From Candidatus Campbellbacteria bacterium (GTDB lineage: Bacteria; Patescibacteriota; Minisyncoccia; Phycocordibacterales; JAXHMZ01): a stretch of DNA of 64,000 bases. Below are positions 7,862 to 57,405 of the stretch, in pieces. The stretch covers positions 79,726 to 143,725 of the forward strand of contig JAXHMZ010000003.1 in NCBI GenBank assembly GCA_034521025.1, read 5' to 3'. Position 1 is the stretch's first letter. Every line of letters begins with the position of its first letter. A program made the translations under genes and the position numbers. The notes beneath the pieces were generated by a model, which saw only the letters and a list, made by a program, of their open reading frames with translations, did not search any database and was not told where the DNA came from.

Positions 7862-8386
7862 TCAACAACTGGCCAATTCCTCTATAATACTTTCGGGCAT
7901 TTTACTGAATGAGTTCGGATCTTTTTTCATTTGTATGTACTGGTTTTCAACTCTATAAGCTTGCGCTTCAGCCTGTCCTTCGCAATCGTACCTCTTCCGT
8001 TTTAGAAATTGGGCGTGGTGAACTAATTCGTGAACTAAGTACTTATTACCTGTATCATCCGTATAATCGATTTCCTCTCTTAAAACAATGTAGTTGTACC
8101 TATTCCTATAAGTAAGGCTAATGCTAGACGCTGTGTCTACGTGAGGATCATCGGAGTCAAAGTAAAAAACCGGTATTTGGCTTATATGATACGTAGTATT
8201 CTCGTTAAGCCAAGTGATCAACTCCAACATCACATCTCTGGTTTCTTTGTATTTTTTTGTTTTTGATTGCAAATGTTGTTTGGTTAAAACAGACAACTGT
8301 AGAAGTTTGGGGCCGATCAATTGAAAACAGACCAGAAAAACAATAAATGAGTAGATGAAAACCGCAAACTTTCTCACAGTGAACAC
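7862..8386 (-). CDS. membrane-anchored putative zinc metallopeptidase-like protein (HExxH)
   Basis: 174 aa; N-terminal TM; YLVHELVHHAQF HExxH motif with downstream E/Q-rich helix; GTG start with AAGGAGAA SD. Confidence 0.55.
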   Translation of the reverse strand: MFTVRKFAVFIYSFIVFLVCFQLIGPKLLQLSVLTKQHLQSKTKKYKETRDVMLELITWLNENTTYHISQIPVFYFDSDDPHVDTASSISLTYRNRYNYIVLREEIDYTDDTGNKYLVHELVHHAQFLKRKRYDCEGQAEAQAYRVENQYIQMKKDPNSFSKMPESIIEELASC

Positions 8387-8508
8387 TTCTCCTTCCTTGT
8401 GGTGAACTCAAACTCCCTACCCTTCCCTATGATTAGTTTACAATATAAACTAATTCTGTCAAATTCTGTGAAACTTTATCTCTACTCTTTATTGTTAATT
8501 TAATTAAA

Positions 8509-9803: not shown

Positions 9804-11144
9804 TTAGATATTCTTCTTGGCCTTTTTTAGGCGCTCTACTGTCTTCAGTTTACCGAGAACTGAAGCAATAGTAAATGGATCAAGAGACTGCTCTTTACCA
9901 GAAAGAGCTACTCTCATGGGCCAAAGCACCTCTCCTCTTCCCTTTTCTGTAGCATATTCCCATACTGCATTTTTTATAAACTCTGGTTTTTCATAAGAAT
10001 CTAGTGATTCTAATAGATCGATCAATTTATCTAGGTGTGATCTGGTCTGCTCTGAAGGCGTGTCTTTCCAGTTTATTTTTTCTGGGTCTATCTCGGGAGA
10101 GCTCAATAAGTAGTCATACTCCCCTTCTGATGCTAGGCCTATAACATCTTCAAAGACTTCGGTCCTCTCACAAATTGCTTCTCTCAAGCTCTCACTTTCT
10201 TGTATTAATTCATAAAGCCCTTCCGGCAGATCATTTTTTCTTGATTTGAGAAAATTCATTAATTTGGTATCTCTTTCTTCTTTGGAAAGCAATTTTATGT
10301 GCTCTGAATTAAACCAGCGCAACTTTTCAGTTGAAAATATTGCACCGCCTTTTTGTACCCTATTAATATCAAAAAGATCTATCAATTCCTCTGTTTTAAA
10401 CACCTCCTTTTCTCCTCCTGGATTCCACCCCAAAAGAGCTAGGTAGTTCAAAATGGCTTCTGGCAAAAAACCTTGTTTCTGATATTCCGTAATCGAAACT
10501 GTCCCGTAGCGTTTAGACATTTTTGAACGATCTGGGGCTAATATCATCGGAATATGGGCATAAAAAGGACGCTCAACACCCAAAGCTTCAAGAATGAGTA
10601 TTTGCCGCGGAGTATTTGAGATGTGGTCTTCTCCGCGAATAATATGCGTTACGCCCATCTCCTTATCATCAACTACAACCGCCAAATTATACAGGGGCTC
10701 ATTTTCACTTTTGGCTATCACAAAATCACCCAATTCCGTTGTGTCAAAAGAAACTTCTCCCCGTATTATGTCCTCAAATCGAATAGATTTGTTAGGGTTT
10801 TTGAATCGAATGACGCTCTGACGTTCGCCCGAGGGTTCTTCAGACACATAAGCGCATCCGGAATCTATGAGCTTTTTGATGTATTCTTGATATATTTCTG
10901 TGCGTTCTGATTGCTTATATAACTCATCATAATAGATGCCAAGCCATTCAAAGCCGCTCAAAATATCTTCTTCAAATTCTCTCTTAGATCGTTCTGTGTC
11001 CGTGTCCTCAAGACGTAAAATAAATTTGGCACTATTTTTTCTAGCGTAAAGGAAGTTAAATAGCGCGGTGCGCACACTACCTATGTGTAGTGGACCAGTT
11101 GGTGACGGAGCAAACCTAACTACATTTTGTTGTTCTTTGGTCAT
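9804..11144 (-). CDS. gltX: glutamyl-tRNA synthetase
   Basis: 446 aa; PSPTGPLHIGSVRTALFN (HIGH), KMSKR; class I GluRS. Confidence 0.95.
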   Translation of the reverse strand: MTKEQQNVVRFAPSPTGPLHIGSVRTALFNFLYARKNSAKFILRLEDTDTERSKREFEEDILSGFEWLGIYYDELYKQSERTEIYQEYIKKLIDSGCAYVSEEPSGERQSVIRFKNPNKSIRFEDIIRGEVSFDTTELGDFVIAKSENEPLYNLAVVVDDKEMGVTHIIRGEDHISNTPRQILILEALGVERPFYAHIPMILAPDRSKMSKRYGTVSITEYQKQGFLPEAILNYLALLGWNPGGEKEVFKTEELIDLFDINRVQKGGAIFSTEKLRWFNSEHIKLLSKEERDTKLMNFLKSRKNDLPEGLYELIQESESLREAICERTEVFEDVIGLASEGEYDYLLSSPEIDPEKINWKDTPSEQTRSHLDKLIDLLESLDSYEKPEFIKNAVWEYATEKGRGEVLWPMRVALSGKEQSLDPFTIASVLGKLKTVERLKKAKKNI

Positions 11145-17488: not shown

Positions 17489-18940
17489 TCAATGGAAAGA
17501 TTTTGCTTCAGTATCTTTCCTTTTTATAGAGATTCCGAGCTCCTTTAGTTGTTTTTCAGAAATTTCAGACGGCCCCTGCATCACGGAAGTATGCCCGCCT
17601 CTTGTCATAGGAAAGGCCTGAACTTCGCGTAGCGCATCTTCTCCTGAAAGGTTCATTATATTGCGCTCAATCCCTAAGGCGATACCTCCATGGGGCGGAG
17701 TACCGAACTCAAACGCCTCCAGCATATGCCCCACACTTTTTTCTATATAATCGTCATCCATTCCCATCGCTTTGTATGTAGCTCTCAGAACTTCAGGTTT
17801 GTGTGCACGAATACTTCCTCCGCCGGATTCAAAACCATTGCAGACCAAGTCATACTGCGTGGTTAGTATCTCCCCTATTTCATCAATGTCGCGAGGATTT
17901 TCACCGTTATCTACTCGCTCTGCGATCTTTAGCAAAGTTTCAACATGCTCTTCTTTTGGCTGAGAGAAAGGGTTGTGGCTAAAAGTCCAATCGCCATTAT
18001 CTGTTTTTTCGAAGAAAGGAAAATCTACCACCCAAGCATACGAAAGTATGCCTTTCTCTTTTTCTTCTTCTGTGCGCAGATCAAATTTGTCGTCACCAAA
18101 CCTATCGAGAGCTTCTTTGTAGCTTATGCGTGGGAATGGCTTTTCTTTTATAGAATATCCCATACTTTCAACTGTCTTTGTCATCATCTCTTCGACCAGT
18201 TCAATTACCTGATCTCTCGCCACGAATGACAATTCAATGTCAATTTGGGAATGTTCAAAGCCGCGATCAGCGCGAAGATCTTCGTCACGGATAGCGCGCG
18301 CTATTTGAAAGTATTTTTCAAACCCAGCGGTCATAAGTAGTTGTTTGTACTGTTGCGGTGACTGCGGCAAAGCGTAAAATTTACCTAAATGCAACCTCGA
18401 CGGCACCACAAAGTCTCTCGATCCCTCCGGTGTAGACTCGGTTAAAATTGGAGTTTCTATTTCGGTAAATTTTTGGCCAAATAGATATTCGCGACATTTT
18501 TGTACAAACTGACTGCGCAACCTTATATTCCTTTGCATCCTCTCGGATCGCAGATCCAAATAACGGTATTTCAAGCGTAAATTTTCGTCGATGTCCGACG
18601 TGTCTTCTGTTACATCAAAAGGAAGTTCTTTGGCTTTGCTTATTACTTCTATGTCTAGTAATTCAAGCTCTATTGAGCCGTTTAGGTCCTCCGTTCGCAT
18701 TTTTTCTGGACGCTCTTTAACTTTACCGCGAACCTCTACTGTCCACTGGTGTTTGACCTCCTTAGACTTTTCCACAGCCTCAGGATTTCCCGAATGAGCA
18801 ACCGCCTGCACAGTTCCGGTTGCGTCCTTAAAATCAAAAAATACGATCTTTCCTTGGTCGCGCTTCACCCAAACAAAGCCGTTAATAAAAACCTCCTCTC
18901 CCACATAGTCTTTTAGGTCTTCTATATATTTTCTTTCCAT
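17489..18940 (-). CDS. aspS: aspartyl-tRNA synthetase (short bacterial form lacking the GAD insertion domain; probably non-discriminating)
   Basis: 483 aa; OB-fold N-domain, class II motifs incl. QSPQQYKQLLM...FRDEDLRADRG (AspRS motif 2 type). Confidence 0.9.
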   Translation of the reverse strand: MERKYIEDLKDYVGEEVFINGFVWVKRDQGKIVFFDFKDATGTVQAVAHSGNPEAVEKSKEVKHQWTVEVRGKVKERPEKMRTEDLNGSIELELLDIEVISKAKELPFDVTEDTSDIDENLRLKYRYLDLRSERMQRNIRLRSQFVQKCREYLFGQKFTEIETPILTESTPEGSRDFVVPSRLHLGKFYALPQSPQQYKQLLMTAGFEKYFQIARAIRDEDLRADRGFEHSQIDIELSFVARDQVIELVEEMMTKTVESMGYSIKEKPFPRISYKEALDRFGDDKFDLRTEEEKEKGILSYAWVVDFPFFEKTDNGDWTFSHNPFSQPKEEHVETLLKIAERVDNGENPRDIDEIGEILTTQYDLVCNGFESGGGSIRAHKPEVLRATYKAMGMDDDYIEKSVGHMLEAFEFGTPPHGGIALGIERNIMNLSGEDALREVQAFPMTRGGHTSVMQGPSEISEKQLKELGISIKRKDTEAKSFH

Positions 18941-18961
18941 AGATATTTAATGTTGAATTTT

Positions 18962-19188
18962 AAAGCAAAAATCCGCCCCTTGATACAAACCGATGCTTTC
19001 GTTTTATATCCAAGGGCGGATTTTCCGCGGTACCACCTTGACTTCTCGCTCATTACAGCTGTTTCGGGCTTACCCGGAAGGATCTACTCTCACGCTTGCT
19101 AGTGATTTCTACCTTCAAGCTCGGTTAGAGTCAGCTAACCTCAAACGCTTATGCTCTCTTTAGCTTATGAGATTTTTGCGAAATACGC
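18962..19188 (-). promoter_or_regulatory. T-box riboswitch leader upstream of aspS
   Basis: minus strand contains AGAGAG, conserved T-box sequence AGGTGGTACCGCGG (plus 19025-19039) immediately 5-prime of a strong terminator hairpin AATCCGCCCTTGG...CCAAGGGGCGGATTTTTG; a GAC (Asp) triplet in a stem I loop. Confidence 0.7.
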
Positions 19189-19190
19189 AA

Positions 19191-19751
19191 CTACCCGCGA
19201 AGTACTTGCTGCGCAAATGACTTGACCGTCGCTCTAGAATCAGCGGCCTCGAACTCTTCAAGGATCTCTTCTGAGACGTTGATCCCTTCGAGAGCCCCGC
19301 GGGTGTTTTCACGAAGGTTTATATGACCCGGATTTATTTCAAGCGCTTCGAAGTACAGCTCGAGAGCTTTCTTGTACACCTCCTCATCGTCGGTTTCTCG
19401 CGCTCTTTTGTGGAGTGCAAGAGCGTAGTTGTATATAAGGGAAAAGTGCGTATTGTTTAGCTCGTACGCTTTCTCATAATAATCTATCGCCTCACTCACC
19501 CTGTCTCGTCCGACCAAAAGAAGAGCAAGATTAAAGAGCGCCTGAAAATTGTTCTCATCGAGAGCTATACACTCCCTGAGCGCCTCCTCCGCTTCTGCTT
19601 CATCTCCATGATTGATGTAATACATTCCAAGCAACAGCTTTCCAAGCGGCGAATCGTTCTCCGTAAGCGCAGGAATGTGTTCTTCAAATGTGTTTGTATC
19701 TGCGTGCGCGAACGCTTCAAAAGCACGCAACACTATATCGTTTGTTTCCAT
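19191..19751 (-). CDS. TPR repeat protein
   Basis: 186 aa; multiple 34-aa TPR-like repeats (A..Y..A..P). Confidence 0.75.
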   Translation of the reverse strand: METNDIVLRAFEAFAHADTNTFEEHIPALTENDSPLGKLLLGMYYINHGDEAEAEEALRECIALDENNFQALFNLALLLVGRDRVSEAIDYYEKAYELNNTHFSLIYNYALALHKRARETDDEEVYKKALELYFEALEINPGHINLRENTRGALEGINVSEEILEEFEAADSRATVKSFAQQVLRG

Positions 19752-34370: not shown

Positions 34371-35783
34371 TTATTTTAATTTCTTTTTGAAAATCTCTGC
34401 CAAAACTTGTGGATTAGCTGACCCTTTTGTTTTTTTCATTCCTTGCCCTATAAAAAACTGAAATACATTCTCATTGCCTGACTTGTAATCAGTAACAACT
34501 TCTGGATTCTCCGCTATGACCTCTTCAACGACTTTTTCTAATGCACTCTCATCGCTCTGCTGCAAGAGATTTGCTTCTTCAGCTAGTTTTTTGGGTGATT
34601 CGTCCTTATCAAAAAGCAAAACCAGTGTATCTTTCGCGCCTCTACTAGAAAGCTCTCCTGAATCGATCATATTAATAAGCTCGACAAAGAGCTCAGCTCT
34701 AGGTAGTTGTATCTCCGAGTCATTTGATCTTATGCCCTGAAGGTCGGAGGTTATATAATTCGCGGCTAATTTTAACTTAGCGGCACTCCCATTTAATAAA
34801 TTCGATACCTCATCAAAAAAGTCACCTAATTGAAAATCTAAGATCAACGTTTCGACATCTTCCTCCTTAATACCCAGATCGATCAGACGTTTCCTTTTTT
34901 CATTCGGAAGTTCTGGTATTTCAGAAAGTAAGCTATTTTTGGAAAATTCTTCTAGTTGCGAAATCTTTAATTTAGGAAGATCCGGCTCGGGGAAATACCT
35001 ATAGTCTTGTGACGATTCCTTTTTTCTCTGAGTGTATGTCTCTTGTTTGTTTTCGTCCCAGCCTCGTGTTTCCTGCTCAACTGTCTCGCCGTTTTCTAAT
35101 ATTTCTATCTGACGTTCTATTTCAAAGGCAATCGCCTTCTCTACAGAACGAAATGAATTTAAATTCTTTACTTCGGTTTTGGTACCAAAATCCTCTGATT
35201 TTGATACCGAAATATTAGCTTCAACGCGCATCTCTCCTCTTTCCATATTTGCCTCAGAGATATCCAGAGTGCGAAGAAGCAACTGCAATTCTCGGGCAAA
35301 ATCCGCAGCTTTTTTACCGCTTTTTATAACGGGCTCTGTTACTAATTCCATAAGAGGCACTCCCGCGCGATTATAATCAACCAGGGAATAATCTCCTTTG
35401 TCATGTGTAGACTTGGCAGTATCCTCTTCTAAGTGAATACGGGTTATGTCAACTTCACATAATCTCCCGCCGGTAACTAGGGGGTATTCATATTGTGAAA
35501 TTTGGTACCCCTTAGGGATGTCCGGATAGAAATAGTTCTTCCTATCGAATTCTGTAAAATCAGCGAGGTTGCCATTCAAAGCGACTCCTACCTTAAGAAC
35601 ATTTTTTACCGCTTCCTTATTGATCTTAGGAAGCGTCCCTGGGTGTGCCATGCAAATTGGGCAGATCCGAGAGTTGGGCTCACTTGTGTGTGGAGCGTTT
35701 TCGCAACCACAGAACATTTTTGACTTGGTCTTCAGCTCCGCGTGAATTTCAAGCCCTATTGTGGGTTTATAGTCGTCTTTCAT
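34371..35783 (-). CDS. gatB: Asp-tRNA(Asn)/Glu-tRNA(Gln) amidotransferase subunit B
   Basis: 470 aa; GatB N- and C-terminal (YqeY-like) domains. Confidence 0.95.
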   Translation of the reverse strand: MKDDYKPTIGLEIHAELKTKSKMFCGCENAPHTSEPNSRICPICMAHPGTLPKINKEAVKNVLKVGVALNGNLADFTEFDRKNYFYPDIPKGYQISQYEYPLVTGGRLCEVDITRIHLEEDTAKSTHDKGDYSLVDYNRAGVPLMELVTEPVIKSGKKAADFARELQLLLRTLDISEANMERGEMRVEANISVSKSEDFGTKTEVKNLNSFRSVEKAIAFEIERQIEILENGETVEQETRGWDENKQETYTQRKKESSQDYRYFPEPDLPKLKISQLEEFSKNSLLSEIPELPNEKRKRLIDLGIKEEDVETLILDFQLGDFFDEVSNLLNGSAAKLKLAANYITSDLQGIRSNDSEIQLPRAELFVELINMIDSGELSSRGAKDTLVLLFDKDESPKKLAEEANLLQQSDESALEKVVEEVIAENPEVVTDYKSGNENVFQFFIGQGMKKTKGSANPQVLAEIFKKKLK

Positions 35784-54795: not shown

Positions 54796-55190
54796 GGAGG
54801 AATCTCCGCTCTATCTAATAGGCTTCTTTTCAATGTGCGCGAGTCCTCGGCTCAAAGCTTCCGGGCTCGTCATTATCAGGTAAACGCGCCCTTAGAAGCA
54901 TTTACCGCTCTATTTGAATTTGAGTTTTTTAAAGGGTGCGCGATCCAAGACTCGAACTTGGGACCTCGTCATTATCAGGTGATCGCGACCTTAGGAGCAA
55001 TCACCGCTCTATCCAATAGGCTTCTTTTCAATGTGCGCGATCCAAGACTCGAACTTGGGACCTCGTCATTATCAGTGACGCGCTCTAACCATCTGAGCTA
55101 ATCGCGCACATTGAAAAGAAACAATACATCTGAGCTAATCGCGCACTCTTTAAAAAACTTTCCTGCGACTGAGTAAATCGCGCGCAAAAA
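54796..55190. repeat. array of tRNA-Ile-derived partial copies and about 48-nt direct repeats
   Basis: 3-prime half of tRNA-Ile (anticodon loop to acceptor end) repeated at 54937-54978 and in degenerate form at 54866-54896; aggag(g/c)aatc(t/a)ccgctctatc(t/c)aataggcttcttttcaatgtgcgcga at 54796-54843 and 54992-55039; tRNA 5-prime fragments ctgagctaatcgcgcac at 55092-55108 and 55131-55147. Confidence 0.8.
55034..55107 (-). tRNA. tRNA-Ile (anticodon GAU), CCA not encoded
   Basis: manual fold: acceptor GCGCGAT/ATCGCGC, D arm GCTC-AGATGGTTA-GAGC, anticodon arm CGTCA-CTGATAA-TGACG, T arm CCAAG-TTCGAGT-CTTGG, discriminator A. Confidence 0.85.
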
Positions 55191-55722: not shown

Positions 55723-55917
55723 TACTTAGTACTCATAACCTATAAAGCCGCCCCTTGCGAGGCGGCTTGTTATTTTCTGCACAATTTCTTTTGCTTCATT
55801 CATCTCGGTGTCGCTGTTTCCGAGAATAGCGGAAAGATTTTGGATTGTTCTTTCAAACACACGCGCGATAAACGCACGTATCGACTCGATAAATCTGAAA
55901 ATTCAGATAAATCAAAA

Positions 55918-57405
<1,488 letters not shown>

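Follow-up and report, generated by a model that had tools for sequence, protein, structure and literature searches.

In the 64,000-nucleotide stretch of DNA analyzed here (the window), the leader of aspS is very probably a functional, tRNA-Asp-sensing T-box attenuator that acts on transcription and carries a minimal tRNA-decoding arm. T-box riboswitches are the classic example of tRNA recognition by an mRNA: by default transcription terminates, and uncharged tRNA rescues it by pairing its NCCA end with a UGGN bulge. The T-box leader spans positions 19149-18962 on the minus strand, just upstream of aspS. The original prediction that a T-box leader controls this gene is borne out by homology to Rfam family RF00230 (sub-threshold), by an independent covariance model (R1), by covariation in all helices, and by the agreement between codon and gene.

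Locus and anatomy of the aspS leader

The aspS gene (17489-18940, minus strand) encodes a bacterial-type AspRS of 483 aa (NCBIfam NF001750, 548.9 bits; TIGR00459, 472.7 bits). Pfam matches in this protein comprised the class II core (tRNA-synt_2) and the OB fold only, and no GAD insertion domain was detected; the same short form of AspRS recurs throughout the 80 related loci. A TPR-repeat gene (19191-19751) lies upstream on the same strand, leaving the 250-nt minus-strand spacer that had been described (18941-19190). The palindrome UUGCGUAUUUCGCAA (19176-19190, minus strand) is located directly 3' of the TPR-gene stop codon and just 5' of the leader, and a promoter scan found no sigma-70-like promoter between the TPR gene and stem I. 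In the closest-locus comparison the window AspRS showed 64% identity to a protein from a Parcubacteria-group MAG, and the best 80 loci in the species-representative genome collection were all AspRS genes, and the titles of most name Patescibacteria lineages; judged by these similarities, the source of the window is a Patescibacteria (CPR) genome. The window also contains a 16S rRNA gene (55916-57404, minus strand; 1489 nt, 1360.7 bits), followed by a tRNA-Ile(GAU) gene (55033-55107, minus strand) with A73 and no encoded CCA. Other genes connected with tRNA charging were cysS (448-1860), gltX (9804-11144) and gatB (34371-35783), all on the minus strand, the last of which had already been reported for the window. 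Neither the Rfam scan nor the core search nor the R1 search returned a T-box leader at any of these three genes, and T-box control in the window is thus limited to aspS. The proposed comparison with other synthetase leaders of the genome could be carried through for those within the window, where cysS and gltX lack a T-box and aspS alone has one.

Stem I is ultrashort (32 nt; 19118-19149, minus strand) and consists, according to the RF00230 alignment and covariation, of an AGC/GCU basal helix, a K-turn, a 6-bp GGUUAG/CUAACC helix and an apical loop. Read from 19149 to 19118, its segments are AGC, GUUU, GA, GGUUAG, CU-GAC-U, CUAACC, GA and GCU. The K-turn, with a GUUU bulge and tandem GA/GA, is predicted from its sequence pattern, which is kept in all 16 aligned leaders, with covarying helices on either side. 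The specifier loop CUGACU (19129-19134, minus strand) holds the Asp codon GAC at 19132-19130, complementary to the anticodon GUC. A GAC had been reported in a loop of the stem I region, and its position in the window is indeed a hairpin loop, the apical loop of stem I. The base 3' of the codon is U in the window leader; A is conserved there in 15 of the 18 leaders of the family. Both the RF00230 alignment and a hand parse show the window stem I to lack an AG bulge, a distal loop and interdigitated T-loops, the parts that make up the tRNA-elbow platform. An AGAGAG string, initially read as a stem I element, is present within 19161-19150. It falls outside stem I, on the 5' side of the K-turn and basal helix and some 20 nt ahead of the codon, and orthologous leaders do not conserve it; its assignment as the stem I AG bulge was therefore rejected.

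Stem II with its S-turn follows at 19077-19116 (minus strand), with an outer helix GAAGG/CCUUC and an internal loop (5' side UAGAAA, 3' side GAGUAGAU) that was aligned to the GAA...AGUA motif of RF00230. The adjoining segment (19057-19076, minus strand) was parsed by hand, with support from covariation, as a stem IIA/B H-type pseudoknot composed of CGG, GUA, AGC, CCG, AAACA and GCU. Between the pseudoknot and the T-box there is a purine-rich linker, GUAAUGAGCGAGAAGUC (19040-19056, minus strand), and no real stem III: 2 nt in the window stand against 19 RF00230 positions, and a stem III is present in some relatives only (e.g. L016, L049, L174).

The T-box/antiterminator element (19012-19039, minus strand) reads, in order, AAGG, UGGUACC, GCGGA, AAA, UCCGC and CCUU, where AAGG/CCUU form helix A1, GCGGA/UCCGC form helix A2, and UGGUACC is a 7-nt bulge (19035-19029). 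The T-box sequence AGGUGGUACCGCGG occupies 19038-19025 on the minus strand and includes an exact match to the core GGUGGUACCGCG at 19037-19026. As had been proposed, it is positioned against the 5' arm of the terminator, AAUCCGCCCUUG, which doubles as the 3' strand of the antiterminator. In the MFE fold, the intrinsic terminator (18962-19024, minus strand) is a GC-rich hairpin, AAAAUCCGCCCUUGG...CAAGGGGCGGAUU, followed by UUUUU at 18971-18967. The long hairpin with its U-run at 19024-18962 thus stands as described earlier, except that its 3' arm reads ...UAUCAAGGGGCGGAUUUUUG and not CCAAGGGG.

Alternative terminator and antiterminator folds had likewise been anticipated, and both were found: the two structures share UCCGCCCUU and are consequently mutually exclusive, with energies of -32.5 kcal/mol for the terminator versus -6.8 (explicit structure) to -7.7 kcal/mol for the antiterminator. 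All 16 leaders combine a terminator of -12 to -34 kcal/mol with an antiterminator of -5 to -15 kcal/mol and a U-run. Since the U-run of the window leader ends 26 nt before the AUG of aspS and the terminator hairpin covers no Shine-Dalgarno-like sequence, the expression platform is assigned to transcription. Among metagenome loci (L081-L200), which were collected with one search pattern and whose sequences are related, the distance from T-box to U-tract had a median of 65 nt in short-stem-I leaders (n=9) versus 52 nt in canonical ones (n=70; Mann-Whitney p 6.7e-6). Longer terminators could, speculatively, lengthen the decision window and buy time.

Model matches, covariation and relatives

A standard Rfam scan of the whole window with curated thresholds reported only the 16S rRNA and the tRNA-Ile, and no T-box. 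The search with RF00230 that had been suggested succeeded only in permissive form: over 451 nt around the spacer, the model aligned end-to-end to 19154-19009 with an E-value of 5.8e-6 and 33.9 bits, far below the gathering threshold of 93 bits. Matched elements included the K-turn, the stem II GAA/AGUA motif, stem IIA and GGUGGUACCGCG...CGCCC. The low score arises because 80 stem I and 19 stem III positions of the model are replaced by 12 and 2 nt, respectively. Nine orthologous aspS leaders scored between 24 and 53 bits, all sub-threshold, and at the curated Rfam threshold none of eight short-stem-I metagenome leaders was reported, compared to four of seven canonical controls. The short-stem-I class is thus invisible to routine annotation, and the same threshold also loses some canonical leaders.

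The hand-made leader alignment described below was fitted to the proposed structure, and the covariance model R1 was therefore built as an independent test, with ten related leaders as seed and the window left out. Searched against the 64 kb with filters off, R1 gave a full-length match to the window leader at 19149-19012 (44.1 bits, rough E-value 7e-15) as the sole significant match, the runner-up reaching 8.9 bits. Non-seed members were recognized at 36.3 (L198), 33.5 (L099), 32.6 (L028), 30.6 (L192), 28.8 (L026) and 26.7 bits (L053). Because R1 also aligns canonical T-boxes via the common core, at 17-33 bits, leaders were assigned to the class on the anatomy of stem I rather than on their score. 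The 12-nt T-box core by itself is weak, as a match with at most one mismatch occurred in 52 of 100 shuffles; the MFE z-score of the window leader was -4.0.

For covariation, 16 leaders were segmented by hand, checked against the sequences and held in register with N padding (alignment A2). A whole-leader MAFFT alignment (A1) had been dropped, as it aligned stem I and the T-box and scrambled the IIA/B and stem III region. Standard pairs made up 98.7% of 372 cells in A2, pseudoknot included, a percentage inflated by the fitting to the proposed structure; when the 3' partners were slid by 1-3 columns, 39-54% remained paired. Compensatory double changes were observed at 23 of 33 pairs (87 cells); the slid controls gave 1-9 such pairs and the shuffles 14.2 +/- 1.9, with none of 500 shuffles reaching the observed number. 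All seven helices, including the pseudoknot, are supported: the basal and upper helices of stem I covary in the 16 leaders, the outer helix of stem II carries compensatory changes at five of five pairs, the fully paired pseudoknot at three of four (IIA) and five of six pairs (IIB), and antiterminator helices A1 and A2 covary as well. The two leaders L174 and L190 show such a change in IIB, GGUAA/UUACC in one pairing and AGUAA/UUACU in the other.

An equivalent leader was found at the same place in nine of approximately 75 aspS loci from Patescibacteria species representatives with enough upstream sequence (GTDB loci L005, L016, L022, L023, L026, L028, L049, L053 and L069), whereas about 65 of the 75 have no T-box. 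The core in the nine reads GGUGG(C/U)ACCG(C/U)G and is located 75-150 nt before the start codon. Across 586 kb of window and loci, T-box cores were confined to these aspS leaders. A scan of metagenomes with a pattern made up of the T-box core, the 3' antiterminator strand and the terminator 3' arm yielded 120 loci. Most are canonical leaders with a long stem I and stem from gut assemblies; nine follow the short design, and all nine come from environmental sources. Five of these precede aspS-like ORFs (L095, L184, L192, L198, L103), two precede ileS-like ORFs (L174, L190) and one precedes proS (L118; TIGR00408, 593 bits); in L099 the contig ends and leaves no downstream ORF. AspRS or neighboring genes of L095, L099, L103, L184 and L198 encode proteins 55-66% identical to those of named Patescibacteria loci, while comparison of L118, L174 and L190 with the collected loci gave no taxonomic placement. 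Six further loci (L085, L087, L122, L179, L180, L197) matched a regular expression for a K-turn plus short hairpin, at sites 5' of canonical leaders, and were rejected on visual inspection, since they carry the AGAGA and GGUGNGA elements of stem I.

The family shares a plan for stem I: a basal helix of 2-4 bp, a K-turn with a bulge of 3-4 nt and GA opposite GA (UA/AA in three leaders), an upper helix of 3-6 bp, and an apical loop of 6-9 nt in which two to three bases precede the codon. This design is kept among leaders whose AspRS share 47-64% identity with the window AspRS.

Several members deviate downstream of stem I, and three of them (L028, L026, L053) have lost the stem II domain with its IIA/B pseudoknot. 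In L028 (2829-2915) only 29 nt separate the ultrashort stem I from the T-box, and neither stem II nor a pseudoknot is present; members of this kind seem to lack both elements and would be the smallest natural T-boxes. Other inserts replace IIA/B in L026 (2825-2951) and L053 (2755-2896), and L053 carries an insertion of about 32 nt atop antiterminator helix A2. In the proS locus L118 (2418-2670 and 3064-4509), the leader has a second, near-duplicate hairpin with the loop CUAAGAA directly after stem I, and an ORF of approximately 90 aa and about 400 nt separate its terminator from proS. The ileS leaders L174 (394-600) and L190 (6111-6330) have long AU-rich terminators with U-runs and lie on environmental contigs of 32-34% GC. 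Related leaders in L120 (7528-7714, minus strand) and L128 (1861-2047, minus strand) show an apical loop UCGCAA (GCA, possibly Ala) and an internal hairpin with a U-run (CUCCUCCGUAAAUGGAGGAUUUUUU) before the T-box; their downstream ORFs had no NCBIfam match.

Codon specificity, mechanism and alternative readings

The codon in the apical loop tracks the downstream gene across aspS, ileS and proS. GAC is the codon of the window leader and of ten more, all but L099 followed by a confirmed aspS. AAC occurs in five leaders upstream of aspS, namely L005 (2775-2914), L016 (49-192), L095 (13720-13889), L192 (2493-2626, minus strand) and L198 (about 8190-8403), with the apical loops AUAACA, CCAACA, GUAACG, UUAACAA and UUAACAC. 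AUC is present in the two ileS leaders (AUAUCA in L174, CAAUCU in L190) and CCG in the proS leader L118 (CUCCGAA). An AAC codon upstream of aspS makes sense if such AspRS also charge tRNA-Asn for GatCAB, and the AAC leaders suggest that aspS in these loci responds to tRNA-Asn charging, as expected of a non-discriminating AspRS feeding GatCAB. The earlier suggestion that the window AspRS may be non-discriminating would agree with the Asn codon of these five relatives, and gatB is present in the window as well.

The antiterminator bulge varies in its last base. UGGC is found in eight of the ten window and GTDB aspS leaders; the window leader has UGGU instead, as do those of ileS and proS. In bacteria, G73 is the established discriminator base of tRNA-Asp and tRNA-Asn, and the single tRNA-Asn recovered among the loci ends in G. 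The bulge base appears to fit the expected discriminators, that is UGGC with G73 for aspS and UGGU with A73, as in the window tRNA-Ile, for ileS. No tRNA-Asp gene was found in the window or in 88 loci, and the UGGU of the window leader would imply either a G-U wobble with the expected G73 or an unusual tRNA-Asp.

We infer tRNA binding, charge sensing and attenuation from what the computation shows: conserved and covarying elements of sequence and structure, two exclusive folds, and the concordance of codon and gene. Stem I of the nascent leader would fold into its K-turn and 6-bp helix and present the apical GAC to the GUC anticodon of tRNA-Asp. By analogy with the solved ileS T-box-tRNA complexes (PMC7583486), the stem II S-turn and the IIA/B pseudoknot may dock on the codon-anticodon helix and supply the affinity that otherwise comes from the distal platform. 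If the tRNA is uncharged, its 3' NCCA would pair with the UGGU bulge and stabilize the weak antiterminator (approximately -7 kcal/mol), permitting read-through into aspS; with aminoacylated tRNA or no tRNA, the terminator (approximately -32 kcal/mol) would form and transcription would end in the U-tract, 26 nt short of the start codon. Since fast tRNA capture by transcriptional T-boxes is held to depend on the distal stem I platform (PMC7583486), function without this platform is not guaranteed.

A leader that has lost its distal stem I might instead be a decayed, non-functional remnant of a canonical T-box, in which only a constitutive terminator or attenuator is left between the TPR gene and aspS. 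The RF00230 score of just 33.9 bits with 80 stem I positions missing, the roughly 65 of 75 related aspS loci that dispense with the element, and the departure of the window leader from two bases that are mostly conserved (U 3' of the codon, UGGU for UGGC) are what such decay might leave behind. A relic, however, would not be expected to keep a K-turn, an S-turn, a pseudoknot and a codon under selection, and the truncated design persists where AspRS identity is 47-64%, with compensatory changes in all helices and an apical codon that changes in step with the gene (aspS, ileS, proS). We consider decay very unlikely on these grounds. A chance resemblance, in which an ordinary terminator of the TPR gene happens to lie beside a GGUGGUACCGCG-like string, could draw on the fact that the 12-nt core is not rare at one mismatch and that the hairpin could end transcripts of the same-strand upstream gene. 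It is barely credible given the full-length match to two independent covariance models, the conservation of the leader at orthologous positions in other genomes and covariation far above the slid-partner and shuffle controls, and is effectively refuted.

The decoding module, with its short stem I, stem II and IIA/B, has parts matching those of the ultrashort translational class, and one could envisage that tRNA binding governs access of the ribosome rather than transcription. The competing helix, however, is a GC-rich hairpin of approximately -32 kcal/mol directly followed by UUUUU, i.e. a standard intrinsic terminator, which stops 26 nt short of the AUG and masks no Shine-Dalgarno-like sequence, and hairpin and U-run are present in 16 of 16 relatives; translational control of this kind is accordingly regarded as highly improbable. 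For the transcriptional tRNA-Asp attenuator, the broader question is whether it belongs to a group of its own. We lean slightly towards the view that a distinct, undescribed class of transcriptional T-boxes exists in Patescibacteria, and perhaps in further uncultured lineages, with an ultrashort stem I, no elbow contact and several synthetase genes under control (aspS with Asp or Asn codons, ileS, proS).

Should this class be confirmed, the distal stem I platform would not be required for co-transcriptional tRNA sensing. A family that combines an ultrashort stem I with an intrinsic terminator and has at least four specificities offers a direct test of the kinetic argument for a long stem I, and a compact engineering scaffold. 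The findings further suggest that control of tRNA charging by RNA survives in reduced CPR genomes, hidden by curated Rfam thresholds, and the aspS leaders with an Asn codon speak for a regulated indirect Asn-tRNA pathway in their hosts.

Comparison with known T-boxes

With canonical transcriptional T-boxes (RF00230; e.g. Bacillus tyrS and glyQS) the window leader shares the K-turn, the specifier codon, the stem II S-turn, the IIA/B pseudoknot, an antiterminator with a UGGN bulge opposed by a more stable intrinsic terminator, and an aminoacyl-tRNA synthetase gene downstream. In contrast to these, its stem I measures 32 nt and not the canonical length of approximately 90-100 nt, the specifier is found in the apical rather than an internal loop, the AG bulge, distal loop and interdigitated T-loop platform are missing, and stem III is essentially absent. 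The hosts differ as well, Patescibacteria for the window leader and Firmicutes and allies for canonical T-boxes. The literature searched contained no paper that pairs a T-box with Patescibacteria, Parcubacteria, Saccharibacteria or the candidate phyla radiation (CPR), in keeping with the earlier remark that a T-box in a CPR-like genome is notable.

For the coupling of an AspRS to tRNA-Asn there is a parallel in Clostridium acetobutylicum, where an Asn-specific T-box reportedly controls ND-AspRS/GatCAB. This precedent for Asn T-box control of AspRS is attributed to Saad et al. 2012 (J Biol Chem), cited in PMC4206432. The leaders described here resemble it in that an AspRS of the indirect Asn-tRNA pathway would be coupled to tRNA charging, with AAC in five relatives; unlike the clostridial T-box, which has the canonical long stem I and belongs to a Firmicute, the window leader reads GAC and not AAC.

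An ultrashort stem I has been regarded as peculiar to translational ileS leaders of Actinobacteria (PMC7583486, PMC11297988, bioRxiv 10.1101/2023.02.28.530422), and translational T-boxes are said to have the shorter stem I (PMC11297988). According to PMC7583486 and bioRxiv 10.1101/2023.02.28.530422, the ultrashort (US) stem I class comprises actinobacterial ileS leaders (Mycobacterium, Nocardia) and is traced to Sherwood et al. 2015; the leaders are described there as responding to tRNA-Ile, as using a Shine-Dalgarno sequestrator and as occurring mostly in Actinobacteria. The class is defined as translational, with all members regulating ileS (bioRxiv 10.1101/2023.02.28.530422), and stem II and IIA/B are said to compensate in these RNAs for the absent elbow platform (PMC7583486). 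The class II model of TBDB was searched only in Actinobacteria and among class I matches with a truncated stem I (PMC7778990).

The window leader is like these US ileS leaders in its short stem I, its terminal-loop specifier, the absence of an elbow platform and the retention of stem II and IIA/B. It is unlike them in having an intrinsic terminator in place of the Shine-Dalgarno sequestrator/antisequestrator, and in reading Asp upstream of aspS, with relatives that read Asn, Ile and Pro and also have terminators. This includes the ileS leaders L174 and L190, whose U-run terminators set them apart from the translational actinobacterial ileS leaders. The leader departs from canonical T-boxes in two marks, the distal stem I and the Rfam threshold, and from the ultrashort class in two others, the translational platform and ileS. 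Compared by way of secondary descriptions of the ultrashort class, what appears to be new here is the joining of an ultrashort stem I, so far described only for translational ileS switches of Actinobacteria, to a transcription terminator.
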